Of a stretch of 64,000 nucleotides of DNA, positions 3 through 22,383 are shown piece after piece. The position numbers and the translations under genes are program-made. Numbering within the stretch: position 1 is the first letter of the stretch; each line of letters begins with the position of its first letter. The stretch is from an uncultured Pelagibacteraceae bacterium (GTDB lineage Bacteria > Pseudomonadota > Alphaproteobacteria > Pelagibacterales > AG-422-B15): the NCBI GenBank assembly GCA_902578305.1, contig CACHCK010000003.1:66492-130491 (forward strand). Direction: 5' to 3'. Under the pieces are notes generated by a model. The model was given only the letters and a program-made list of their open reading frames with translations, searched no databases and had not been told where the DNA came from.

Positions 3-1328
3 CGTATAAAAAGAATACAAACTTTAGTTGAGGAAAATATAGATGCTTTTCATGACGCGTTAAGATCTGATTTTGGCACACGACATGAGCAGTTAAGCCT
101 AATGGCTGACACAATGCCTGTAATTAATAATGCAAAAGACGCCTTAAAAAATATTAAAAGATGGGTTAAGCCTGATAAGCGAAAACCTAACTTCCCATTG
201 GGATTACTTGGTGCAAAAGCTTATGTTCAATTCCAGCCTTATGGAGTAGTTGGTGTTATTTCTCCTTGGAACTTCCCACTAACTCTAAGTATTGCGCCTT
301 TAATAGAAATATTTGCGGCTGGAAATAATGCAATGATGAAACTCTCAGAGTTCGTTCCAGCAACCTCTGAATTAAGTGAAGAACTTATTAATAAATTTTT
401 TAGTGATGAAGAAGTTGTTATAGTAAATGGAGGTCCTCAAACCTCGCAAGATTTTGCAGGATTACCATTTGATCATCTGCTTTTCACAGGATCAACAAAT
501 GTAGCTAAAAAAGTTGCATCTGAGGCAGCATCAAATTTAGTACCGCTTACTCTTGAATTAGGTGGCAAGTCACCAGTAATAGTTGGTCCAAATGCCAAAA
601 TGAAAAAAAGTGTTGATAAGATAATGATGGGAAAGCTCTTAAATGGAGGACAAATTTGCATATCACCTGATTATGTAATGGTTCCTGAAGGGCAAACAGA
701 TGAATTTGTTGATCATGCAAAATCTCATGTTAGTGAAAATTATCCAACGATAAAAAATAATCCAGATTATACATCCATAATTCATTTGAATCACTACGAG
801 AGACTTCGTGAATTAGTAAAAGATGCTGAGTCAAAGGGAGCTACTATTGTAGAAATAAACCCTGCAAACGAAGACCTTTCGCAACAAGAGCACCATAAAA
901 TATTACCTACTTTAGTTTTAAATCCAACGGATGATATGAAGATTATGCAAGAAGAAATATTTGGACCTTTATTGCCAGTAAAAACATACAAAAGCTTTAA
1001 TGAAACAATAGAGTTCATAAATAAGAACCCTAAAGCGCTTGCAATATATTATTTTGGCGATGACAAAAAAGAAATTGATACTGTGTTAAACAATACTTCA
1101 TCTGGTCAAGCGGTTATAAACGATGTCTTATTCCAATTTTCTATGCATGATCTACCTTTTGGAGGGGTTGGTCCTAGTGGAATGGGCTCTTATCATGGTT
1201 ACGATGGCTTTAAGAACTTTAGTCATAAGAGATCAGTTCTGAAGGGTCAAAATATCTTAGATGCGGGTAAGATGATTACAGCTCCATTTACTGAATCTAC
1301 CGAAAAAAATATAAAAAGGTTATCTTAG
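3..1328 (+). CDS. Aldehyde dehydrogenase, coniferyl/fatty-aldehyde (CalB-like) family; 5' end lies outside the window
   Basis: Frame is open from position 3 (RIKRIQTLVEENIDAFHDALRSDFG...), so the track start at 102 is not the true start; motifs FTGST, ELGGKSP, catalytic Cys in GQICISPDY, EEIFGP, PFGGVGPSGMG. Confidence 0.88.
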   Translation, partial: RIKRIQTLVEENIDAFHDALRSDFGTRHEQLSLMADTMPVINNAKDALKNIKRWVKPDKRKPNFPLGLLGAKAYVQFQPYGVVGVISPWNFPLTLSIAPLIEIFAAGNNAMMKLSEFVPATSELSEELINKFFSDEEVVIVNGGPQTSQDFAGLPFDHLLFTGSTNVAKKVASEAASNLVPLTLELGGKSPVIVGPNAKMKKSVDKIMMGKLLNGGQICISPDYVMVPEGQTDEFVDHAKSHVSENYPTIKNNPDYTSIIHLNHYERLRELVKDAESKGATIVEINPANEDLSQQEHHKILPTLVLNPTDDMKIMQEEIFGPLLPVKTYKSFNETIEFINKNPKALAIYYFGDDKKEIDTVLNNTSSGQAVINDVLFQFSMHDLPFGGVGPSGMGSYHGYDGFKNFSHKRSVLKGQNILDAGKMITAPFTESTEKNIKRLS

Positions 1329-3322
1329 AGAATACTCTCAGCTGCTATTTTTTTTGAGTTTTCGACAATAAACTTAAATCTCAACTCAGGTTTTTTGCCC
1401 ATTAAAGAATCTACAGATTTATGAGTTTTCTTTTTGTCTTTTGATGCAATTTGAACTTTTAATAAGGTTCTATTTTCCTGCGACATAGTTGTTTCTTTCA
1501 ATTGAGCAGGCATCATCTCACCTAATCCTTTAAATCTATTAATGGTAACGTCTGAATTTTTAAATTCTTTTTTTATTATTTCATCTTTATGCTTATCATT
1601 TACAGCGTAATACGTTTTAGCTCCTTTAGATATTTTGTATAATGGAGGCACGGATAAGTACAGATGCCCTTCATCAATTAGTTTTGGAAATTCTTTATAG
1701 AAGAATGCCATCAATAAGGTGGATATATGAGCACCGTCAACATCAGCATCTGTCATAATTATAATTTTTTCGTATCTAATATCTTTGCTATTAAATTTAT
1801 CTCCTCGCTTACATCCAATTGCTTGCATTAAATCAGTAATTTCTTGGTTTGCATTTATTTTATCTCTTCCAGCACTGATCACATTTAAAATCTTACCCCT
1901 TAAAGGTAAAATGGCCTGTGTTTGGCGATCTCTTGCTTGTTTTGCCGATCCACCAGCCGAGTCTCCTTCAACAAGAAAAATTTCAGTTCCTTTATTTCCA
2001 TCAATTGAACAATCAGCAAGTTTACCTGGTAAGGTTGTTTTTTTTCTTTTTATATTTTTTTCTATGATTTGATTTGACTTGGATTGCAGTCTTAACTGTG
2101 ATCGATTAAATGCGTATTGAAATAATTCTTCTGCAGACCTAGTTTTTTTTGTAAGCCATTGTTCAAATAGTTGTCGTGCTTTCATTTCAATTTTACGACC
2201 AGGCTCTATACTTGATAACTTTTCTTTTGTCTGACCTTGAAACTCAGGGTTTTCTATAAAAGCAGATAAGATTGATCCAGATGAACCAAAGAGATCTTCT
2301 TGATTAATTTGAGATGATTTTTTTTCGTATTTAATTTTTGAAAAATCTTTAAATGCCTTATAAATTCCTGACTTGAAACCGCTTTCATGAGTACCGCCCA
2401 ATGGGGTTTTAATAGTGTTACAATAAGATTCATTTATAGGTTCCATCACATCAAACCAATTTATAATTCCCTCAATTTTACCACTATCAACATCTATCTC
2501 AGTGTTGAAATAAAATGGATCTTCAAAAATAGGGTCATTGGGCGTACAAAGATTATTTAAATAATCTTTAATTCCATCGGAGTAATGTAGTTTATCTGAT
2601 AATGGAATATTTTTTTTGGCGGTTGCCTTACTGCATGACCAATGAATTTCAACATCTGGTATAAGATAGGCTTTAGCTTTTGCCATATTATATATAATTG
2701 AAGCATCAAATTCTATTTCTTTGCCAAAAATTTCTGGGTCCGGTGAAAATACTATTTTTGTACCCTTTTTAAGAGGACCTTTTGCGGATGCTTTTAATTT
2801 ATTTTTAGGAGAACCTTGACTATAAGTTTGTACAAAATATTTTTTATCTCTTGCAATTTCAAGAGTAAGTTTTTTAGATAGCGCGTTTACAACAGAAATT
2901 CCAACGCCATGCAAACCGCCAGAAGTTTTGTAATTATTTTTTGAAAACTTGCCCCCAGAATGTAGTGTTGTCATAATGACTTCAACTGCAGGTATTTTAA
3001 ATTTTGGATGCTTATCAACAGGAATACCTCGCCCATTATCAGAGATTTCAATCGTGTCCTGGGAAACAAGCTTAATTTCTACCTTATTTGCAAAACCAGC
3101 AACAACTTCATCCATTGAATTATCAAGTACCTCGCTTACCAGGTGATGCATTGCCATTATATCTGTTCCCCCAATATACATTCCGGGTCGCTTTCTAACC
3201 GGTTCTAAACCTTCAAGGACTTCAATATCTTTTGCGGTGTAAGATGTGTTTGAATTTTTTATTGTCTTTTTGGATGAACTCTTCTTTTTAATTGATTTAT
3301 TTTTCTTTGATTTCTTTCTCAT
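1325..3322 (-). CDS. parE: DNA topoisomerase IV subunit B
   Basis: LEPVRKRPGMYIG, EVLDNSMDE, GGLHGVGISVVNALS, LVEGDSAGGSAKQAR, IMTDADVDGAHI, RFKGLGEM; ends KPELRFKFI without the GyrB insertion. ATG at 3322 preferred over the TTG at 3331. Confidence 0.93.
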   Translation of the reverse strand: MRKKSKKNKSIKKKSSSKKTIKNSNTSYTAKDIEVLEGLEPVRKRPGMYIGGTDIMAMHHLVSEVLDNSMDEVVAGFANKVEIKLVSQDTIEISDNGRGIPVDKHPKFKIPAVEVIMTTLHSGGKFSKNNYKTSGGLHGVGISVVNALSKKLTLEIARDKKYFVQTYSQGSPKNKLKASAKGPLKKGTKIVFSPDPEIFGKEIEFDASIIYNMAKAKAYLIPDVEIHWSCSKATAKKNIPLSDKLHYSDGIKDYLNNLCTPNDPIFEDPFYFNTEIDVDSGKIEGIINWFDVMEPINESYCNTIKTPLGGTHESGFKSGIYKAFKDFSKIKYEKKSSQINQEDLFGSSGSILSAFIENPEFQGQTKEKLSSIEPGRKIEMKARQLFEQWLTKKTRSAEELFQYAFNRSQLRLQSKSNQIIEKNIKRKKTTLPGKLADCSIDGNKGTEIFLVEGDSAGGSAKQARDRQTQAILPLRGKILNVISAGRDKINANQEITDLMQAIGCKRGDKFNSKDIRYEKIIIMTDADVDGAHISTLLMAFFYKEFPKLIDEGHLYLSVPPLYKISKGAKTYYAVNDKHKDEIIKKEFKNSDVTINRFKGLGEMMPAQLKETTMSQENRTLLKVQIASKDKKKTHKSVDSLMGKKPELRFKFIVENSKKIAAESIL

Positions 3323-3406
3323 AACAAACAATACAACTAATAATAGATTCTTTACATTGTGTAATATTTATTTACTCTAACAGCATGAATTTATTAGGAA
3401 TTTAGT

Positions 3407-5044
3407 ATGCCGGTTATTGAATCAAAAATAATGATTAATTCAGAGTCCTTCAAAAAAAATCAGGAGGACCATCAAAAGCTTATTGATGAAATTAGAACTT
3501 TAGAACAAAAAATAGCAGATAATTCCGCTAGGTCTAAGGCTAAGTTTGATAAAAGAGGACAGTTGCTGCCTCGTGAAAGATTAAAAAGGCTATTAGATCC
3601 AGGTAGTTTTTGGCTTCCATTATCCACCCTTGCTGGTTACAAGATTGGCGATGATGATGGCGATAAAAACATTGGATGGGGAAACTCTATTAGCGGTATT
3701 GGTTATGTTGCAGGCGTTCGTTGCATGATTGGTGTTTCAGATGCGGGCATTAAAGGGGGAAGTGCATCTGCGATGGGCACTGAAAAGGCGTTAAGAGGTG
3801 CTCAAATAATTTTTGAAAATAAATTACCTTTTATACAGTTAATAGAAAGCGCTGGTGCAAATCTACTGAGACAGACCGATATGTTTATTAAAGGTGGCAG
3901 AAGTTTTGCCAATCTTTCTAAAATGTCAGCAATGGGAATCCCGACAATTGGCGTAGTTCACGGCTCATCAACTGCAGGCGGCGCTTACCAGACAGGCTTA
4001 TCGGATTATATAATTGTAGTTAAAGAAAGATCAAAAATATTTCTAGCAGGCCCTCCTTTATTAAGAGCATCGCTTGGCGAGATTGCTACTGACGAAGAAA
4101 TTGGTGGAGCAGATTTACATTTTGCAGTCTCCGGACTTGCTGAATATATGGCAAACGATGATGCTCATGCAATTGAGATTGCAAGAGATGTCATGAAGAA
4201 TATTGGATGGAATAATGATTTCATTTCTACTCAAAAGTCTGAGTATGATGAGCCCGTTTACTCACCTGATGAGTTAACAGGGGTTGTTCCAGTTGATTAT
4301 AAAACTCCGTATGATTGCCGGGAAGTGATTGCAAGAATTGTTGATGGTTCAGATTTTTTAGAGTTTAAAGAAGGCTGGGGTAAAACCCTCATAACAGGAC
4401 ATGCAACTATTCAAGGTTATAAAGTTGGAATTTTAGGGAACAACGGACCGATATTTTCTGAAAGTGCTAATAAAGCTACTCAATTCATACAAATTTGTTC
4501 TCAATCAAATACGCCGCTAATTTTTCTTCAAAATATAACCGGCTTTATGGTGGGTACTAAAGAGGAAGCAAAAGGAATGATAAGACACGGATCAAAGATG
4601 ATACAGGCGGTTACTAATTGCACCGTTCCTAAAATAACACTTAGGATTGGAGCCTCTTTTGGTGCGGGAGAATATGGAATGGCGGGAAGATCTTATGATC
4701 CTAGATTTTTATTCTCATGGCCTAATGCAAAAATGAGTGTGATGGGTGGGGAACAGGCCGCTAGAACAATGGCTCAAGTTGCTCTTGAGGGCGCTGAACG
4801 AAAAGGTCAAGATCCCAAAAAAATATATGGAGAGAACCTTGAAATGCTTGAAGGTATGAAACAAAAAATAATCGATCAGTACCGTGAGGAAGGTGAAGCA
4901 ATATTTTGCTCAGCGAGATTATGGGATGACGGAATTATTGATCCAAAGGATACAAGAAAGATTTTAGGTGAATGCTTAAATATTATCAGCGACGGCGATA
5001 AGAGAGAGTTAAAACCAAATACTTTTGGCGTTGCAAGAATGTAA
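3407..5044 (+). CDS. atuC: Acyl-CoA carboxylase carboxyltransferase subunit, geranyl-CoA carboxylase (AtuC)-like
   Basis: Carboxyl_trans motifs GQLLPRERL, ESAGANL, STAGGAYQTGLSD (AtuC-type rather than the LiuB GGAYVPAM), SARLWDDGIIDP, ending FGVARM; AGGA SD upstream; adjacent atuD-like gene. Confidence 0.72.
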   Translation: MPVIESKIMINSESFKKNQEDHQKLIDEIRTLEQKIADNSARSKAKFDKRGQLLPRERLKRLLDPGSFWLPLSTLAGYKIGDDDGDKNIGWGNSISGIGYVAGVRCMIGVSDAGIKGGSASAMGTEKALRGAQIIFENKLPFIQLIESAGANLLRQTDMFIKGGRSFANLSKMSAMGIPTIGVVHGSSTAGGAYQTGLSDYIIVVKERSKIFLAGPPLLRASLGEIATDEEIGGADLHFAVSGLAEYMANDDAHAIEIARDVMKNIGWNNDFISTQKSEYDEPVYSPDELTGVVPVDYKTPYDCREVIARIVDGSDFLEFKEGWGKTLITGHATIQGYKVGILGNNGPIFSESANKATQFIQICSQSNTPLIFLQNITGFMVGTKEEAKGMIRHGSKMIQAVTNCTVPKITLRIGASFGAGEYGMAGRSYDPRFLFSWPNAKMSVMGGEQAARTMAQVALEGAERKGQDPKKIYGENLEMLEGMKQKIIDQYREEGEAIFCSARLWDDGIIDPKDTRKILGECLNIISDGDKRELKPNTFGVARM

Positions 5045-6220
5045 TTAATTTTTTCCTGGAAGAATATCAAGATATTTTGAAATAATGCCTAGCATTACTT
5101 CATCTGATCCACCGCCAATTGAACCTAAACGTCCATCTCTATACGCTCTTGAAATAGGTGACTCATCCATATAACCCATTCCACCCCAATATTGTAAGCA
5201 TTCGTCGTTAACTTTTCTAGAAAGTCGTGTGGCCTTTAGCTTTGACATTGAAGCCAATTTTGTACAATCACCACCATTTACATGTATCTCAATTCCTTTC
5301 CATGTAAGTGCTTTTAAAGCTTCAACCTCCGTCATCAGCTCGGAAAGTTTGTAATGAACAATCTGATTGTCAAGAATAGGCTTACCAAATGTCTTTCTTT
5401 GTCTTGTATAATTAATGGTCTCATTAATAGCTAATTCGCAGCCAGTATAGCCAGCAATAGCTGCATAAAGTCTTTCTTCTTGAAACTGCATCATTTGATA
5501 AATAAAGCCTTTACCTTCTTCTCCGACTAAATTTTTCTGCGGCACTCTTACATCATCAAAAAATATTTCAGCAGTATCAGACGAATGCATGCCCATTTTT
5601 TTTAATTTACGATTAATCGTGACACCTTTTGCTCTTTTGCCATTTTCCTTAAGAGGTACACATATAAGAGATTTGTTTAAATGTTTATTCTTATGGTCTG
5701 TTTCAGTGTTAGCAAGCATACACATCCAGTCTGCTTGAGTACCATTTGTAATCCACATCTTTGATCCATTGATTACGTAATCATCGCCATCCTTAACTGC
5801 ATGAGTCTTAATGGCAGCCACATCAGAACCAGCACTTGGTTCAGAAACACCAAGGCAAGAAACAAGATCTCCAGTAATAGACGGTTTTAAAAATTCATTG
5901 CATATCTCTTCACTGCCGAAGCGCGCCAATGCCGGAGTTGACATATCTGTTTGTACACCAATAGCCATTGGAACACCGCCGCATTTAATATGTGCCAATG
6001 CCTCATTAAGAACAGCTCCGTATGAATAGTCTAATCCAGATCCACCGTACTTTTCAGGTTTAGTTACTCCAAGAAATCCTTGATCACCTAATTTTTTGAA
6101 TAGCTCATGAGCTGGAAAAATTTCATTTTCTTCCCACTCGTCAACATAAGGGTTAATTTCATCTTCAACGAATTTAAGAGCTGATCTCTTTAATTCTTCG
6201 TGTTCTGTTGTTAATTCCAT
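5045..6220 (-). CDS. atuD: Acyl-CoA dehydrogenase, citronellyl-CoA dehydrogenase (AtuD)-like
   Basis: CGGVPMAIGVQTDMSTPALARFGS, GVSEPSAGSDVA, INGSKMWITNG, QFQEERL, CLQYWGGMGYM, SIGGGSDEVM; closely matches AtuD as I recall it. Confidence 0.75.
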   Translation of the reverse strand: MELTTEHEELKRSALKFVEDEINPYVDEWEENEIFPAHELFKKLGDQGFLGVTKPEKYGGSGLDYSYGAVLNEALAHIKCGGVPMAIGVQTDMSTPALARFGSEEICNEFLKPSITGDLVSCLGVSEPSAGSDVAAIKTHAVKDGDDYVINGSKMWITNGTQADWMCMLANTETDHKNKHLNKSLICVPLKENGKRAKGVTINRKLKKMGMHSSDTAEIFFDDVRVPQKNLVGEEGKGFIYQMMQFQEERLYAAIAGYTGCELAINETINYTRQRKTFGKPILDNQIVHYKLSELMTEVEALKALTWKGIEIHVNGGDCTKLASMSKLKATRLSRKVNDECLQYWGGMGYMDESPISRAYRDGRLGSIGGGSDEVMLGIISKYLDILPGKN

Positions 6221-6276
6221 TTTAATATATATAGCATTTTATTTGCAAAGGTCACCCTTTAGAATTCAACTATTTG

Positions 6277-7686
6277 TCAAACACTAAAATAGTTTTTGTA
6301 TTCAATAGGATGAGGAGAATGTTCTAGATCATATACATCTTCCATTTTCAGGTCTACATATGCATCAATTTGGTCATCAGTAAAAACTCCACCTTCAGTT
6401 AAAAAAGCTCTATCTTCGTTAACCGCCTCAAGTGCCTCTCTAAGAGAGCCACAAACAGTTGGCAATTTTTTAACTTCTGCCTCAGGTAATTCATAAAGAT
6501 CTTCATCAGCAGCATTTCCTGGATCAATTTTATTTTTTATACCATCCATCCCCGCCATTAGCATTGCTGAAAATGCCAAATAAGGATTTGCTGAGGGATC
6601 TGGAAACCTTACTTCAACTCTTTTTCCTTTCGGATTATCTGAAACAGGTATACGACACGAGGCAGATCTGTTTCTTGCTGAGTATACAAGTATTACTGGG
6701 GCCTCAAACCCTGGTATCAGTCTCTTATAACTGTTTGTGCTAGCATTCGTAAACGCGTTAAGTGCCCTTCCATGTTTTATGATCCCACCAATGTAGTGCA
6801 ATGCCATCTCGGATAAGCCTGCATATTTATCTCCTGCAAATAGAGGTTTGCCATTTTTCCATATGGATTGGTGTGTATGCATTCCAGTTCCATTATCACC
6901 TTTAACTGGTTTAGGCATGAATGTAGCAGTTTTACCAAATGCATTAGCGACCATGTGTACACCATACTTATAAAGCTGCATAGCATCGCCCTGTTTAAGT
7001 AAAGTATCAAACTTCAGTCCCAATTCATGTTGACTTGGAGCAACTTCATGATGATGTTTTTCCATCTTCAGTCCTAAATTTTTTAATTCTTCAAGAAATT
7101 CTGTTCTTATATCTTGTGCGCTATCAACAGGCGGTACAGGAAAATATCCTCCTTTAACACCTGGTCTGTGTGCTAAGTTGCCACTTTCATAAGAGCGTCC
7201 AGAATTATATGGACCTTCAGTACTATCAATTTCAAACATTGATTTGTTCATATCAACTTGAAATTTTACATCATCAAATATAAAAAACTCTGCTTCTGGA
7301 CCCATATATATAGTATCGCCAATTCCACTTGCTTTGACATACTCTTCTGCTTTTCTTGCAGTTCCTCTTGGATCTCTCTCATATGGTTCCTTTGACACTG
7401 CATCGAGAACATCGCAAAATACAATTAATGTTGGTTGGGCTGTAAAAGGATCCATTACCGTTGTGGTTAAGTCCGGTTTGAGAACCATGTCTGACTCATT
7501 TATAGCTTTCCAGCCAGATATAGAGGATCCATCAAAGAAAACTCCGCTGTTTAGGAGATCATCGTCTACTGCTGTACCGTCCATCGTTAAATGTTGAAGT
7601 TTGCCTTTTGGATCAGTAAATCTCATATCAAGATACTTGACTTCACCATTTTTAAATTTTTTTAGTACTTCGTTTGCAGTACCCAT
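6277..7686 (-). CDS. glnA: Glutamine synthetase type I
   Basis: FDGSSI, GPEAEFF, KHHHEVA, FMPKPVKGDNGTGMH, NSYKRLIPGFEAP, RIEV-like RVEVRFPDP, adenylylation-site Tyr in DLYELP; 469 aa. Confidence 0.97.
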   Translation of the reverse strand: MGTANEVLKKFKNGEVKYLDMRFTDPKGKLQHLTMDGTAVDDDLLNSGVFFDGSSISGWKAINESDMVLKPDLTTTVMDPFTAQPTLIVFCDVLDAVSKEPYERDPRGTARKAEEYVKASGIGDTIYMGPEAEFFIFDDVKFQVDMNKSMFEIDSTEGPYNSGRSYESGNLAHRPGVKGGYFPVPPVDSAQDIRTEFLEELKNLGLKMEKHHHEVAPSQHELGLKFDTLLKQGDAMQLYKYGVHMVANAFGKTATFMPKPVKGDNGTGMHTHQSIWKNGKPLFAGDKYAGLSEMALHYIGGIIKHGRALNAFTNASTNSYKRLIPGFEAPVILVYSARNRSASCRIPVSDNPKGKRVEVRFPDPSANPYLAFSAMLMAGMDGIKNKIDPGNAADEDLYELPEAEVKKLPTVCGSLREALEAVNEDRAFLTEGGVFTDDQIDAYVDLKMEDVYDLEHSPHPIEYKNYFSV

Positions 7687-7707
7687 ATGATCCCCTAATT
7701 ATGGAAT

Positions 7708-8688
7708 TTATTTAGTCAAAGTCCCAACTATATGTGATACAATTTTGTATGGATCAGCATTCGATGCTGGCCTTCTATCTTCAAGATACCCATTCCAATT
7801 ATGTTCAACAGTATAAACTGGAATACGTATACTAGCACCTCTATCACTTACACCATATGAAAATTTATCGATACTTTGTGTCTCGTGAAGTCCAGTAAGC
7901 CTCATATTATTGTCAGATCCATAAGCTGCAATACCTTCTTCATGAACCTTTCCAAGTTTGTCGCACATTGATGTAAATAATTCTTCTGATCCAGAAGATC
8001 TCATTTGTTCATTAGAAAAATTAGTGTGCATACCAGAACCGTTCCAATCACCAGTTTTTGGTTTTGGGTGGAAGTTCACTCCAACGCCGTGTTCCTCAGC
8101 AGTTTTCATGAGTAAATATCGGCTTACCCATAAATCATCAGCTGCTTTAATACCTTTTCCAAAGCATTGATATTCCCATTGGCCAAGTGCAACTTCTGCA
8201 TTAGTTCCAGTAAGCGTAATCCCAAGATCTATACAAGCTTTTAGATGTGCATCTGATATGGCTCTACCAACAACATTGCCCGCTCCAACACCACAATAAA
8301 ATTCACCCTGTTCTCTTGGCGTGCCATCTTCCCAGCCAAGTGGTTCACCAGTTTTAGCGTCAGTTAAAAAGAATTCTTGTTCAAAACCAAACCACCATTC
8401 GTCGGAAACAACTTCCGCTGCCGCAGCTCTAAAGTTTGATGGATGAGTTGTATGGTCTGCAGCCTGTACCTGTGTCATTACTATATCGTGTCCATTTGGA
8501 TTAGAATAAGTTTGAACAGGAAGAAGAAGACAGTCTGAGCTTCCTCCCTCTGCTTGTTGAGTAGATGAACCATCAAATGACCAGTCCGGTGCTGATTTTT
8601 CTTCGGTTGCTTTTACTTTACTTCTCATAAAAGGCTCTGGTGTATAACCATCGAGCCATATGTATTCATAAGTTTTCATATCTGACAT
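7708..8688 (-). CDS. glnII: Glutamine synthetase type II
   Basis: EYIWLDG, WSFDGSST, GFEQEF, NAEVALGQWEYQ, GDWNGSGMHTNFS, RLTGLHET, DRGASIRIP, YLEDRRPASNADPY; 326 aa; GGGAGA SD. Confidence 0.92.
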   Translation of the reverse strand: MSDMKTYEYIWLDGYTPEPFMRSKVKATEEKSAPDWSFDGSSTQQAEGGSSDCLLLPVQTYSNPNGHDIVMTQVQAADHTTHPSNFRAAAAEVVSDEWWFGFEQEFFLTDAKTGEPLGWEDGTPREQGEFYCGVGAGNVVGRAISDAHLKACIDLGITLTGTNAEVALGQWEYQCFGKGIKAADDLWVSRYLLMKTAEEHGVGVNFHPKPKTGDWNGSGMHTNFSNEQMRSSGSEELFTSMCDKLGKVHEEGIAAYGSDNNMRLTGLHETQSIDKFSYGVSDRGASIRIPVYTVEHNWNGYLEDRRPASNADPYKIVSHIVGTLTK

Positions 8689-8709
8689 TAATTTCTCCCT
8701 GAATTAAGT

Positions 8710-9045
8710 TTATAATGCGTCCGAACCAGTCTCGCCTGTACGAATTCTCATAACTGTTTCAATGTTAGAAACAAATATTTTACCATCACCAATACGATTT
8801 GTGTTTGCTGAAGCCCTAATCGCTTCGACGGCCGTATCGACAAGATCATCTTGTAAGATTATTTCTAATCTAATTTTCGGAAGAAAATCACCATATTCAA
8901 CACCAGTGTTAACTTCAGTAAAACCTCTTTGTCTACCTAAGCCTTTGGCTTCAGATATAGTGATCCCACGCACCCCAACTTTTTCAAGTGCTTCTTTTAC
9001 ATCATCTATCTTAAATGGCTTTATGACAGCTTCGATTTTTTTCAT
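8710..9045 (-). CDS. glnB: P-II nitrogen regulatory protein with a divergent T-loop
   Basis: MKKIEAVIKPFK, GRQ37-39, Y51, LPK, IGDGKIF, RIRTGE; 111 aa; located upstream of glnA. Confidence 0.93.
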   Translation of the reverse strand: MKKIEAVIKPFKIDDVKEALEKVGVRGITISEAKGLGRQRGFTEVNTGVEYGDFLPKIRLEIILQDDLVDTAVEAIRASANTNRIGDGKIFVSNIETVMRIRTGETGSDAL

Positions 9046-9104
9046 TATGAGTTAACTCTTAAGTTTTATACATTAATTTTCTGAAAGAAGTTAAAATTAA
9101 TGAT

Positions 9105-9164
9105 AGAATGTATATATAATGTTTTTATGCCAAATTGACATATAGATTTAATTATAAGTATAGG
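9105..9164. promoter_or_regulatory. Putative back-to-back sigma70 promoters for glnB (-) and nnr (+)
   Basis: Minus strand TTGGCA(9133-9128)-N17-CATTCT; plus strand TTGACA(9135-9140)-N18-TATAGG. Pattern match only, in AT-rich DNA. Confidence 0.3.
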
Positions 9165-9217
9165 TAAATTTTACATATCTTTATTTAAAACATGCACTTA
9201 TAGGCGATTTCTAATAA

Positions 9218-10702
9218 ATGACTCAATACATCCTTAGTAATAAAGAAATGGCAAAGGCAGACCTTTTAACTATTGAATCTGGTATTTCTAGTTTGGATCT
9301 GATGTTTAACGCAGGAAAGAAAGTTTTCAACAATCTTCCTGTTCAAAGAGGTAAAAGGGCGCTCTTTATTTGTGGTCCGGGAAATAACGGTGGCGATGGC
9401 TATGTTGCAGCTGACCTTATTTTAAAGCAAGGTATGGAAATTGATATTTATTGCCCTATTAGTAAAGCCAAGGAAAGTAATGACAATTTACATTATAAAC
9501 AAAAACTTAATAAATCATTATTTGTTTCCAAAATAAGAAGTTTATCAAATTATTGTTATGTAGTAGACGCTTTATTTGGTACAGGGTTATCAAGGAGAAT
9601 GTCAGATGATTTAAGTTCTTTGGTTAGTAAAATTAATCAATCTAAATTAGATGTTTTCTCCGTAGATATTCCATCTGGCATTAATGGCGATACATCTGCT
9701 GTTCTTGGAGAAGCTTTTAAAGCTTCAAAAACAATTACTTTTTTTAATAAAAAAAAATGTCATTATTTGTACCCTGGAAAAAAATATTGTGGAGAAATAG
9801 TAGTTGAGGATATTGGAATTAAAAAAAACGTATTAGATCAAATTATGCCAAATATAAAAAAAAATGATCCATCATTATGGATTAAGAATTTTCCATTTCC
9901 AGTTTCAAGTGATCATAAATATTCAAGAGGAATGCTTGTAATTAATACTGGTCCTCAATTTCAAACTGGAGCAGCTCGATTAGCTGGTCGATCAGCTATG
10001 CGCGTTGGGGCAGGAGCAGTAACAATGGTCTGCGATGAAGAAACAGCAAAAATATTAGAACCACAAATCTCAGTTGAATTACTATCAGTGATAAAAGAAA
10101 AAAACGATTTTCAAAAACTTTTAAAAGACAAAAGAGTTTCAAGTGTCCTCATAGGTCCTGGAAATGGAGTAAATGATGAAACAAAAGCAAGAACTTTAAT
10201 GGCACTGGCTTTTGTGGATCATTGTGTAATTGATGCAGACGCAATTACATGTTTTGAAAATAATCCAAAAGAATTATTTATAGATACTTATCCGCATACA
10301 ATACTCACACCTCATGAAGGTGAATTTAAAAGATTATTTGGTGAAGGTATCGCGTTAATGGAAGATAAAGTACTCAAGTGTGTTGAGGCAGCCAAATTAG
10401 CAGGAAGTATAGTTTTACTCAAAGGCGCTGATACAGTTATTGCTGATCCTGAAGGGAATGTTGTAATAAATGCAAGCGAAGCTCCATATCTAGCAACCGC
10501 AGGATCAGGTGATGTTCTTGCTGGAATCATCGCTTCACTTGTTGGAGATAATAAGATGAATGCTTTTGATGCGACTTGCGCTGGAGCATATATTCACTCA
10601 AAACTTGGAGAAATGATAGGCCCCGGGCTAATTGCAGAGGATCTTATTGACAACATTCCCCTGATGATTAAAAAGCTGCATTCGTATGTTGAGGAAAATT
10701 AA
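9218..10702 (+). CDS. nnr: Bifunctional NAD(P)HX epimerase/dehydratase
   Basis: CGPGNNGGDG, VDALFGTG, VDIPSG (YjeF_N); HKYSRG, TGAARLA, IDADA, LTPHEGEF, LLKGADT, LATAGSGDVLAG. Confidence 0.93.
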   Translation: MTQYILSNKEMAKADLLTIESGISSLDLMFNAGKKVFNNLPVQRGKRALFICGPGNNGGDGYVAADLILKQGMEIDIYCPISKAKESNDNLHYKQKLNKSLFVSKIRSLSNYCYVVDALFGTGLSRRMSDDLSSLVSKINQSKLDVFSVDIPSGINGDTSAVLGEAFKASKTITFFNKKKCHYLYPGKKYCGEIVVEDIGIKKNVLDQIMPNIKKNDPSLWIKNFPFPVSSDHKYSRGMLVINTGPQFQTGAARLAGRSAMRVGAGAVTMVCDEETAKILEPQISVELLSVIKEKNDFQKLLKDKRVSSVLIGPGNGVNDETKARTLMALAFVDHCVIDADAITCFENNPKELFIDTYPHTILTPHEGEFKRLFGEGIALMEDKVLKCVEAAKLAGSIVLLKGADTVIADPEGNVVINASEAPYLATAGSGDVLAGIIASLVGDNKMNAFDATCAGAYIHSKLGEMIGPGLIAEDLIDNIPLMIKKLHSYVEEN

Positions 10703-20868: not shown

Positions 20869-22383
20869 ATGATTTACTGCCGCTACATAAAAAATACTCT
20901 ATATGCTCTTATGATGTTTGGCATAATTTTGACTGCTCAAGTTCATGCAAGTGAATTTAAAGTTGGCTTTGCTAAGATGCCGATCACCCCTAATCTAATT
21001 GATGAATGGGAAGATATAAATAATGATGCTCAATTTGATGCAGATATTGATAAGTGGACTGATATAAATGGCAATGGTCGATTTGATGCAGTGTGGATGG
21101 CTGGTTTTCAAAATAAACGAGCTGCCCAAGGTATTAAAGATGATTTGATGTCCGTAGCCGTTGTAATAGATGATGGCCAGACACGAATAGGTATCATAAG
21201 TGCTGATACAATAGGGTTAATGCGAAAATTTGTAATCAGTGTCCGTGAGGATGTTCCTGCTGATTGGGGCCTAGATTACATTATGGTCCACGCAACACAT
21301 AATCATGAAGGCCCAGATACTCAAGGTCTTTGGGGCCCGAGTTTTTTAAAAAGTGGTGTCAACGATGCCTATATGAAGCGGCTTAAAAAAGATTTTATAA
21401 GCACATTAAAGATGGCGATTGATAACTTAGAGGCTGCAGAAATGAGTTTGGCTTTAATTCCGACTAATCCACTTACCCCTATTAAAGATAAACGAAGACC
21501 TATCGTTATAGATGATGATATAAGGGCAATTTTATTCAATCGCCCTGACGGCTCAATTATTGGTTCTTTAATCAATTTCGGAATTCATGTCGAGCTTGCA
21601 TGGGATAAAAACTTAGACATAACCTCTGATGTTGCTGGCTACTTAAGAAAAGGTATCAGTCATGGAATTTATTATGATGACAAGTTAATTAAACCTGGTC
21701 TTGGCGGAACCACGCTATGGCTTACAGGAAATATAGGAGGCTTGATGACATCAGGGCCAACCGATCCAATTTATGATCCTGTTTTGGAAAAAATGATTAC
21801 TAAACCAAGTCATACTAAAGCTCGCGCATATGGTTATAGCCTTGCAAACAGTGTTATAGAGGCATTTCAAGCAGGCGATTTTAAGACTTCTCCTAAGCCA
21901 TCACTAAGTATCCAATCACAAGAAATAGAATTAGGTATAGAAAACTTGATGCTCTCATTTGGCACTTTGCTTGGTATAATTGATGCTGATACTAAATTCA
22001 GTCTGAGGCCACCATTTATACGTTATCTAAGTGAGGTAGCATTCATACAAATAGGAGATGCATCTATTACTGGAATTCCTGGAGAGCTTTATCCAGAAAT
22101 TGCTATCGGTGGCATTGAAAACCCTAAAGGAGCTGATTATGTTATTGCGCCACAAGAAGTTCCAAATTTACGAAGTCAATTTCCAGACAAACTGAACTTG
22201 ATGGTGAATTTAGCAAATGACTCAATCGGTTACATCATCCCAAAAAGTGAGTGGGACGATGACGCTCCTTGGATCTATGGAGAAAGTGAAGAAACATATG
22301 GCGAGGTAGTGTCCTTGGGCCCAGATACGGCAACAGTGATTCACGAAAATATCATTAAGTTGATAGAAGAGTCAGAAAAATAA
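20869..22383 (+). CDS. Secreted neutral/alkaline ceramidase-like Zn amidohydrolase
   Basis: Signal peptide ending AQVHA; VGFAKMPITP, HATHNHEGPD, INFGIHVE, IPGELYPE, NLANDSIGYI, the motif set of the ceramidase N-terminal domain. Substrate is not established. Confidence 0.7.
   Translation: MIYCRYIKNTLYALMMFGIILTAQVHASEFKVGFAKMPITPNLIDEWEDINNDAQFDADIDKWTDINGNGRFDAVWMAGFQNKRAAQGIKDDLMSVAVVIDDGQTRIGIISADTIGLMRKFVISVREDVPADWGLDYIMVHATHNHEGPDTQGLWGPSFLKSGVNDAYMKRLKKDFISTLKMAIDNLEAAEMSLALIPTNPLTPIKDKRRPIVIDDDIRAILFNRPDGSIIGSLINFGIHVELAWDKNLDITSDVAGYLRKGISHGIYYDDKLIKPGLGGTTLWLTGNIGGLMTSGPTDPIYDPVLEKMITKPSHTKARAYGYSLANSVIEAFQAGDFKTSPKPSLSIQSQEIELGIENLMLSFGTLLGIIDADTKFSLRPPFIRYLSEVAFIQIGDASITGIPGELYPEIAIGGIENPKGADYVIAPQEVPNLRSQFPDKLNLMVNLANDSIGYIIPKSEWDDDAPWIYGESEETYGEVVSLGPDTATVIHENIIKLIEESEK

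Follow-up and report, generated by a model that had tools for sequence, protein, structure and literature searches.

The stretch of DNA analysed here (the window) comprises 64,000 nucleotides of contig CACHCK010000003.1 (assembly GCA_902578305.1, positions 66,492 to 130,491) from an uncultured Pelagibacteraceae bacterium, with a G+C content of 32.9%, and carries three adjacent genes: glnB, encoding a P-II protein, glnII, encoding a type II glutamine synthetase (GSII), and glnA, encoding a type I glutamine synthetase (GSI; Table 1). Ammonium enters biomass through glutamine synthetase, and few bacteria of the nitrogen-poor surface ocean are as abundant as SAR11 and SAR86. A preliminary, sequence-only reading of the window had given the exact limits of this cluster (6277-9045) and its correct order, glnB-glnII-glnA read from right to left, and had described co-oriented genes with 21-nucleotide spacers, GGGAGA and AGGGG Shine-Dalgarno sequences and no terminator between them; the sequence and a terminator scan agree with all of this, and the only correction required is that the genes lie on the minus strand. 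We propose that the cluster is one compact operon produced by insertion of a SAR86 GSII into the glnBA pair of SAR11 subclade IV and working as set out below, and we place the probability of this explanation as a whole at about 0.7.

Table 1. Positions of the genes, spacers and candidate control element of the cluster in the window.
Feature	Position	Strand	Basis or content
TGTCA-N3-TGGCA motif	9128..9140	minus	TGTCAATTTGGCA; about 85 nucleotides upstream of the glnB start; candidate promoter/operator
glnB (P-II, 111 residues)	9045..8710	minus	open reading frame list and raw sequence
glnB-glnII spacer, 21 nucleotides	8709..8689	minus	coding strand ACTTAATTCAGGGAGAAATTA; Shine-Dalgarno GGGAGA
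glnII (GSII, 326 residues)	8688..7708	minus	open reading frame list and raw sequence
glnII-glnA spacer, 21 nucleotides	7707..7687	minus	coding strand ATTCCATAATTAGGGGATCAT; Shine-Dalgarno AGGGGA
glnA (GSI, 469 residues)	7686..6277	minus	open reading frame list and raw sequence
glnA to acyl-CoA dehydrogenase spacer, 56 nucleotides	6221..6276	minus	weak hairpin AAAGG-GTGA-CCTTT and sigma-70-like hexamer pair

The Shine-Dalgarno sequences of both internal spacers are unchanged in sister genomes, and the glnB-glnII spacer is kept in 18 of them. Intrinsic terminators were sought between the genes and after glnA, and the scan reported none in the glnB-glnII spacer, the glnII-glnA spacer or the spacer beyond glnA; its 3 hits all fall within glnII, and shuffled sequences give 1.9 +/- 1.5. 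Neither junction folds with excess stability over shuffled sequence (z -0.86 and +0.13). No Rfam family matched across the window at gathering scores, or at E<=1 in 6150-9300, and the glutamine riboswitch (RF01739) was found neither in the operon or upstream of it nor in five other subclade IV loci scanned, and control of the operon by this riboswitch or by another Rfam element was rejected on these scans. With glnII between them, glnB does not lie directly upstream of the co-oriented glnA, as a strict definition of glnBA would have it. The equal length of the two spacers is a coincidence of the window's species group, because the corresponding spacers of relatives vary from 13 to 41 and from 14 to 138 nucleotides, and the glnII-glnA junction of the window, pared down to a ribosome-binding site, is the most compact form in the lineage.

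All three products can be identified with confidence. In a chain of 326 residues, against about 330-370 as usual for the type, GSII carries the Gln-synt_N beta-grasp and Gln-synt_C catalytic domains (PF03951 and PF00120), both over gathering scores, and over residues 7-323 it aligns with the yeast, maize and Streptomyces structures (3FKY, 2D3A, 4BAX) at E 1e-82 and about 50% identity. Its motifs are WSFDGSST, WFGFEQEF, NAEVALGQWEYQ, GSGMHTNFS, RLTGLHET, RGASIRIP and EDRRPASNADPY, within which DGSST, EQE, NAEV..QWE, GxH, RLTG.HE, RGASIR and EDRRP all align with the solved GSII enzymes. GSI passes the GlnA equivalog TIGR00653 (647.6 bits, cutoff 429.15) and has the motifs EAEFFIF, HHHEVAPSQHE, GDNGTGMHTHQS, NSYKRL and RVEVRFPD. 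P-II matches PF00543 at 105.9 bits and E. coli GlnB (1PIL) at E 3e-38, and scores under the NCBIfam equivalog cutoffs for GlnB and GlnK (141.1 against 202 and 124.5 against 181 bits). The motif list and the structure alignment thus confirm the earlier observation that both synthetases keep their catalytic motifs. The ratio of non-synonymous to synonymous substitution (dN/dS) within the lineage was calculated pairwise, several distant pairs being synonymously saturated and yielding no ratio, and is 0.009-0.05 for GSII, 0.013-0.047 for GSI and 0.016-0.05 for P-II in closer, unsaturated pairs, with 0.156 for P-II against that of the divergent locus L033. The GSII, GSI and P-II genes are all maintained by strong purifying selection. 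For GSII, the low dN/dS together with the intact catalytic motifs therefore argues against the inactive enzyme that the sequence-only reading had allowed for.

Species-representative genomes were queried with GSII, yielding 510 relatives, of which the best 80 loci were analysed. These divide perfectly by record label into 37 from Pelagibacteraceae/Pelagibacterales and 43 from SAR86/Gammaproteobacteria. In each of the 37, the P-II and GSII genes lie in a shared yjeF, glnB-glnII-glnA-acd, mccB context, with GSI directly downstream in all but one (36 of 37); this neighbourhood consists of an esterase gene and yjeF, divergently oriented, then glnB-glnII-glnA-acyl-CoA dehydrogenase, then a carboxyltransferase gene and parE. 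The arrangement is also present on metagenome contigs. Genome AG-422-N09 (L010), whose GSII and P-II are identical to those of the window, is listed together with AG-337-G06, AG-333-C14 and AG-461-B04 as SAR11 subclade IV (Haro-Moreno et al., supplement of PMC7318151), and the genome from which the window derives belongs to this subclade. It has been reported that subclade IV is so divergent that it may fall outside Pelagibacterales (PMC7318151). This fits the identity of its GSI (72-76%) and of its ParE (only 51%) to bona fide SAR11 loci, SAR11 being the closest match of both. Bona fide SAR11 loci share the glnA...parE neighbourhood and have neither P-II nor GSII. The textbook SAR11 of subclade Ia are known for the absence of the P-II system. 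The SAR11-affiliated subclade IV retains a P-II gene, with two classes of glutamine synthetase in one compact operon. HIMB59/AEGEAN-169 (SAR11 subclade V) was first suspected as the source of the window, because HIMB59 is reported to carry glnB-glnA (Smith et al. 2013, PMC3870248), and was rejected when 0 of 18 lineage genome names appeared in a 243-genome table of the HIMB59 order (PMC10734472) and four of the 18 proved to be assigned to subclade IV (PMC7318151).

Transcription would start upstream of glnB, near the TGTCA-N3-TGGCA motif, whose two blocks are the only invariant ones in an alignment of the glnB upstream region from 15 divergent lineage members. The motif lies 65-110 nucleotides from the glnB start codon across the lineage, has a single exact copy in the window, and is also present at a sister locus that lacks GSII (L094). 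TTGTCA may act as a -35-like box, separated by 17 nucleotides from a weak -10 (TATATA in the window; TATATA, TATGTA or AATAGT in the lineage), and TGGCA is conserved within this putative promoter spacer as if it were an operator. A sigma-54 promoter was considered at the same site, as the conserved TTGGCAT resembles a -24 box, and was rejected with GC at the -12 distance in 0 of 15 lineages; no promoter of the rhizobial GG-N10-GC (-24/-12) type is found upstream of glnB in any lineage member. From the candidate promoter a single glnB-glnII-glnA message would be produced, with each downstream gene translated from its own Shine-Dalgarno sequence. The alternative that survives best, improbable as we judge it, is that the genes are adjacent without forming one unit, glnII and/or glnA being expressed mainly from internal promoters in the preceding coding sequence. 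Internal glnA promoters occur in several alphaproteobacterial glnBA loci (Azospirillum, Rhodospirillum), a sigma-70-like site with 9 of 12 matches (7727->7698, minus strand) spans the end of glnII and the spacer, and the glnII-glnA spacers of 40-138 nucleotides in sister lineages, some with very stable hairpins, could reflect independent or attenuated expression of glnA. However, promoter-like hits are fewer than in shuffled sequence (9 against 11.9 +/- 3.8), the 21-nucleotide spacers of the window contain just a Shine-Dalgarno sequence, with no terminator between the genes, and the sole conserved non-coding motif is the one upstream of glnB, all of which weighs against this alternative.

The two synthetases have different histories. 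The nearest outside relatives of GSI are the glnA products of SAR11, at 70-76% identity, and this relationship together with the shared glnA...parE neighbourhood indicates that GSI is native to the host. Compared with SAR86, the GSII of the window is 87-90% identical (43 SAR86 loci) and its GSI 58-60% identical (the two SAR86 loci having GSI). Identity of GSII within subclade IV is 88-94%, and its dN between the two classes, 0.06-0.08, is no larger than that within subclade IV; synonymous sites are saturated between the classes, and the transfer would therefore be old. The GSII sequences of SAR86 and subclade IV form a single cluster in a library clustered at 50% identity, with the next relatives at most 55% identical. 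Sequences in the SAR86 context, with unchanged flanking genes, are found at identities as low as 76-79%, and in a neighbour-joining tree rooted with eight outgroups 99 of 100 bootstraps place the subclade IV sequences within SAR86 diversity at a depth of at least 4 nodes. The sequence-only reading had raised the question of where this GSII belongs phylogenetically, and the answer is a compact marine clade, in which the subclade IV sequences nest within the diversity of SAR86. Its suggestion of a GSII inserted into the core operon of a minimal genome is likewise upheld: the host is a streamlined alphaproteobacterium in which the GSII between glnB and glnA is foreign and the GSI is native. The most economical explanation is that GSII has resided in SAR86 for a long time and that an old transfer between classes carried it from there into the native glnBA of the ancestor of the sampled subclade IV genomes; an ancestral alphaproteobacterial glnB-glnA pair would thus have received the SAR86 GSII coding sequence between its two genes. 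It is likely that only the coding sequence was kept, because the glnB-glnII spacer is short throughout the lineage (13-41 nucleotides), and a single insertion is favoured because the insertion site is identical across the lineage.

In SAR86, GSII fills the glnA slot of glnA-ntrB-ntrC, within a conserved ubiA...yqiA, glnII, ntrB-ntrC neighbourhood that persists down to 76% identity. The same GSII clade is also found at L090/L091:4370-5978, with 76% identity, directly downstream of a gene for an AsnC/Lrp-family regulator and near priA and a sulfatase gene. Transfer in the reverse direction, from SAR11 subclade IV to SAR86, or independent receipt by both from a third lineage, is distinctly unlikely. 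Such a history would accommodate the breadth of identity within subclade IV, which is about as wide (88-94%) as that between subclade IV and SAR86 (87-90%), as well as the star-like tree, the weak monophyly of the alphaproteobacterial GSII clade and the third context beside the AsnC-family regulator. It is opposed by the SAR86-context sequences, which down to 76-79% identity bracket the alphaproteobacterial clade nested among them in 99 of 100 bootstraps, by the synteny of the SAR86 locus over this whole depth, and by the SAR11 genomes outside subclade IV, which have no GSII at glnA. We therefore retain SAR86 as donor and the glnBA of subclade IV as recipient.

The SAR86 loci also bear on what GSII does. 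The 43 loci (e.g. L046:6001-9475, L037:6001-10903) have no P-II gene, and 41 of them have no GSI at the GSII locus, the order glnII-glnA-ntrB-ntrC being found just in L037 and L071. Upstream of SAR86 GSII there are NtrC-box-like repeats and TGGCAC-N5-TTGCA promoters. Eight SAR86 loci lack a downstream ntrB-ntrC, and exactly these have RF01739 aptamers (64-71 bits) ahead of GSII, in tandem about 80-200 nucleotides upstream in six (L059, L069, L073, L074, L076 and L080) and singly in two (L088:4863-4916 and L089:1460-1513). A pattern scan found RF01739 in 0 of 33 SAR86 loci with full-length ntrC, and the covariance model agrees in the four non-riboswitch loci on which it was run (L035, L037, L055 and L071). 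From the distribution of riboswitch and ntrBC, RNA-based nitrogen control seems to have taken the place of protein-based control. In L034, L035, L040 and L051 (e.g. L035:8185-8955), the gene after ntrB is about 256 codons long, with an NtrC-receiver-like start and the remainder missing, as judged by the length of the open reading frame and the N-terminal sequence only.

Glutamine synthesis by GSII is supported indirectly, by its position as the primary synthetase of SAR86 and by its low dN/dS. As some glutamine synthetase-like paralogues act as gamma-glutamyl-amine ligases, the protein could alternatively use methylamine, polyamines or ethanolamine in place of ammonium, which we regard as very unlikely. 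It scores 342.7 bits against the NCBIfam GlnII equivalog NF041605, under the cutoff of 500, and it has EFYCG (in EQGEFYCG), with Phe in place of the first Tyr of PYYCG in eukaryotic and Streptomyces GSII; about half of marine GSII have a Tyr-to-Phe change at an ammonium-pocket residue (PMC1821046), perhaps the one that is Phe in EFYCG. However, the metal, ATP, glutamate and ammonium motifs align with those of bona fide GSII over the full length, the protein is the only glutamine synthetase at the glnA-ntrBC locus in 41 of 43 SAR86 loci, and its control there, whether of NtrC/sigma-54 type or by glutamine riboswitch, is as expected of a primary synthetase. By its score the protein is a GSII outside the rhizobial/actinobacterial GlnII equivalog as NCBI delimits it, in a separate marine clade, and with its next relatives at most 55% identical the rhizobial comparison drawn in the sequence-only reading proves a poor guide. 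That SAR86 DNA was joined to SAR11 DNA artificially or by contamination in single-cell assemblies can be dismissed. The two kinds of cell do share samples and sequencing projects, but the same junctions recur in 37 single-cell or metagenome-assembled genomes that several projects obtained independently. The DNA on either side is alphaproteobacterial, divergence at the junctions keeps pace with that of the flanks, and between these GSII genes and those of SAR86 synonymous sites are saturated.

The pairing of two synthetases is not fixed within subclade IV. In the single-amplified genome AG-900-M14 (L031:5457-8136), known from a single assembly, a terminator-like hairpin (CTAAGGCG...CGCCTTAG) comes after glnB-glnII, the acyl-CoA dehydrogenase gene is next, and neither GSI nor a remnant of it is present. 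Conversely, L094-L097 (metagenome contigs of 65-73 kb; e.g. L094:5001-6761) have glnB and glnA separated by 15 nucleotides, without GSII, in the same neighbourhood. This GSII-less genotype is abundant, the L094-type P-II, 84% identical to that of the window, being represented in 449 index blocks of the metagenome collection. L094-L097 were considered as the ancestral state and rejected, because five trees (GSI rooted with SAR11, YjeF plus esterase, P-II, acyl-CoA dehydrogenase and the MCCB carboxyltransferase) pair them as sisters with the GSII-bearing L030 and thereby nest them among GSII-bearing genomes; their lack of GSII is most simply a secondary loss. Between the L094-type and L030 loci, the three segments of the locus have nucleotide identities of 86%, 81% and 96.5%, a mosaic that indicates recombination. 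The glnII-glnA junction varies likewise, from 14-21 nucleotides in the window's group to 40-43, to about 75 with a hairpin of -23.9 kcal/mol (z -5.7; L021-L029, about 6982-7057), and to 138 with a hairpin of -39.3 kcal/mol (z -5.5; L030:6982-7119), neither hairpin being followed by a U-tract. The window has no such hairpins, which could serve in attenuation, processing or stabilisation, and in the lineages with long junctions the two synthetases may be expressed unequally. Taken together, the state with two enzymes appears to be evolutionarily metastable, relatives having retained either GSII or GSI alone.

The P-II protein also departs from the enteric model. Alignment of its T-loop with 1PIL and 1HWU shows GRQRGFTEVNTGVEYG-DF against GRQKGHTELYRGAEYMVDF of E. 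coli GlnB (1PIL), with one residue deleted directly after Tyr51 and the substitutions K40R, H42F, Y46N, R47T and A49V, and as such the altered P-II remarked on in the sequence-only reading is real, in both the shortened loop and the changes at its apex. Among the 120 best metagenome hits the 111-residue form has only a handful of exceptions, and L031/L033 retain a 112-residue loop form. The residue at position 51 differs between groups: the window's group has Tyr, the L043/44/47/65 group Phe, and L031/L033 His. The window protein thus has Tyr51, yet with a one-residue gap in the loop behind it and with Phe or His in sisters that have the same operon. Because the position drifts between Tyr, Phe and His among genomes with the same operon, Tyr51 is unlikely to be used for modification, and uridylylation of this P-II is doubtful. 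A precedent exists in SAR11 IIIa and LD12, which have glnB without glnD (PMC10030771).

The equivalent of E. coli Tyr397, the adenylylation site of GSI that the sequence-only reading had pointed out, is present in DEDLYELP and is conserved in all members of the subclade IV lineage; SAR86 GSI has Phe at this position. The residue is equally conserved in SAR11 loci without P-II, because of which it is not by itself diagnostic of adenylylation, and the proposed pairing of an adenylylatable with a non-adenylylatable enzyme is not supported. The 64 kb shows no GlnE, GlnD or ntrBC and no other recognisable regulator of nitrogen metabolism, its open reading frames having been scanned in part against family libraries: 15 of the 58 of at least 120 codons were compared with Pfam, five of these also with NCBIfam, and the rest were judged by size and gene order. 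No GlnE-like protein is among the 15, which are housekeeping genes, and the remainder resemble housekeeping clusters in size and order (tig-clp-lon, nuo, dnaE, bamA). Pfam gives no match at E<=1e-5 for one 504-residue open reading frame (20869-22383, plus strand), which lies just past a tRNA-Val/tRNA-Asp pair.

These features suggest how the operon may work. P-II would sense 2-oxoglutarate and ATP/ADP, and would probably act without uridylylation, given its shortened T-loop and a residue 51 that is not conserved as Tyr; we infer that it works by ligand-dependent binding only. Two active glutamine synthetases would share the flux, the large dodecameric GSI being open to classical feedback control and possibly to adenylylation, and the small GSII having no known covalent control. 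Several points weigh against this account. The proposed action of P-II in this lineage, like its putative target, is our inference. The proposed promoter is drawn from conservation, has a weak -10 and is not among the sites reported by the consensus scan; promoters could lie inside upstream coding regions, and co-transcription is predicted from gene arrangement. In sister lineages, the long glnII-glnA junctions and their stable hairpins may uncouple the two enzymes. The trees were built by neighbour joining, and their sample, the best 80 of 510 loci, is biased by similarity; robust monophyly of subclade IV GSII was not obtained with either protein or DNA, support being 23% for protein and 3-14% for DNA in a star-like tree. 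The gene may have been transferred more than once, or have spread by recombination. The rationale from nitrogen cost given below is likewise our own.

A subunit of GSII contains 431 nitrogen atoms and one of GSI 611, and GSII therefore costs about 30% less nitrogen per active site, without known covalent control. Such properties would be likely to make GSII attractive to nitrogen-starved, regulator-poor cells, and would account for SAR86 mostly retaining only GSII at its locus. The operon could then be viewed as a transitional stage in a convergent replacement among streamlined bacteria of the surface ocean, in which a small, modification-free GSII derived from SAR86 displaces GSI, while with genome reduction the wiring shifts from NtrBC/sigma-54 to a glutamine riboswitch or to a glnB-led operon; in subclade IV, a non-uridylylated P-II with a shortened T-loop would act directly on one of the two co-expressed synthetases and not via GlnD, GlnE or NtrB. 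We offer this broader scheme tentatively and consider it doubtful as a whole. If the rationale from cost and regulation is true, these loci would constitute a natural experiment on which glutamine synthetase an oligotroph prefers and how much of its nitrogen regulation is dispensable.

Downstream of the cluster, an acyl-CoA dehydrogenase gene (5045-6220, minus strand) is co-oriented with glnA and follows it after 56 nucleotides without a canonical terminator between them, and as such no canonical terminator marks the predicted end of the operon; a promoter-like site (6248->6219, minus strand) lies in the spacer 3' of glnA. The next gene (3407-5044, plus strand) encodes a carboxyltransferase read as methylcrotonyl-CoA-carboxylase-beta-like, the L094 homologue of which matches Pfam Carboxyl_trans. 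Over 1325-6220 of the window, the glnA-parE adjacency of SAR11 is broken in subclade IV by these acyl-CoA dehydrogenase and carboxyltransferase genes.

Parts of this picture were anticipated by metagenomics. In the Global Ocean Sampling (GOS) data, Yooseph et al. 2007 (PMC1821046) counted 1,021 type II glutamine synthetases, most of them bacterial, and found 19 GOS scaffolds with adjacent GSI and GSII genes that had both active sites conserved and were apparently functional. P-II and a histidine kinase were noted among the neighbours of GSII, Frankia alni was cited as precedent, and the significance was left 'to be elucidated' (PMC1821046). In all likelihood the GOS pairs and the subclade IV and SAR86 loci of the present analysis are one and the same. 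Yooseph et al. gave neither organism nor gene order, and neither operon structure nor origin; the present analysis gives the carriers, the order, the transfer and the losses, and so supplies carriers and a history for the excess of bacterial type II synthetases and for the GSI/GSII pairs. Our literature search found no paper on the glnB-glnII-glnA order, GSII in SAR86, P-II in subclade IV, the carriers or the SAR86 origin. The sequence-only reading had nonetheless gone too far in proposing an undescribed nitrogen-control module, as GSI/GSII pairs and P-II neighbours of GSII were on record since 2007 (PMC1821046), and the synteny survey finds the arrangement widespread in the lineage, in 37 species-level genomes as well as on metagenome contigs. 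The locus is a new, well-conserved variant of glnBA assembled from known parts and partly anticipated, not a categorically new nitrogen-control module; all of its parts belong to ordinary, well-understood protein families, and what it offers is an informative variant and not a new mechanism.

The glnB-glnA pair is a conserved neighbourhood (Smith et al. 2013, PMC3870248), and the present cluster resembles the alphaproteobacterial glnBA in having glnB at the head, glnA further downstream in the same orientation, and short spacers, the strict form being found in L094-L097. It differs in that a synthetase of a second class stands between the two genes, no ntrBC follows, the T-loop is short and Tyr51 is variable. 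In Frankia alni CpI1, glnA and glnII are closely linked (Hosted, Rochefort and Benson 1993, cited in PMC1821046). Unlike the host considered here, Frankia is an actinobacterium with its own GSII lineage. In CpI1, glnA reportedly lies upstream of glnII across a long spacer, with no glnB. The SAR86 locus shares the GSII clade, and in L037/L071 its GSII is immediately upstream of GSI with spacers of 11-14 nucleotides, but SAR86 has no P-II, its control is of NtrBC/sigma-54 type or by riboswitch, and its GSI is usually absent and has Phe at the adenylylation position where present. In rhizobia, glnII is a separate, NtrC/sigma-54-dependent locus. The two systems are alike in that an alphaproteobacterium combines a GSI of the adenylylation type with a GSII without covalent control. 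In contrast to the rhizobial arrangement, glnII of subclade IV is located inside the glnB operon, has no GG-N10-GC promoter, and encodes a protein below the GlnII equivalog cutoff.

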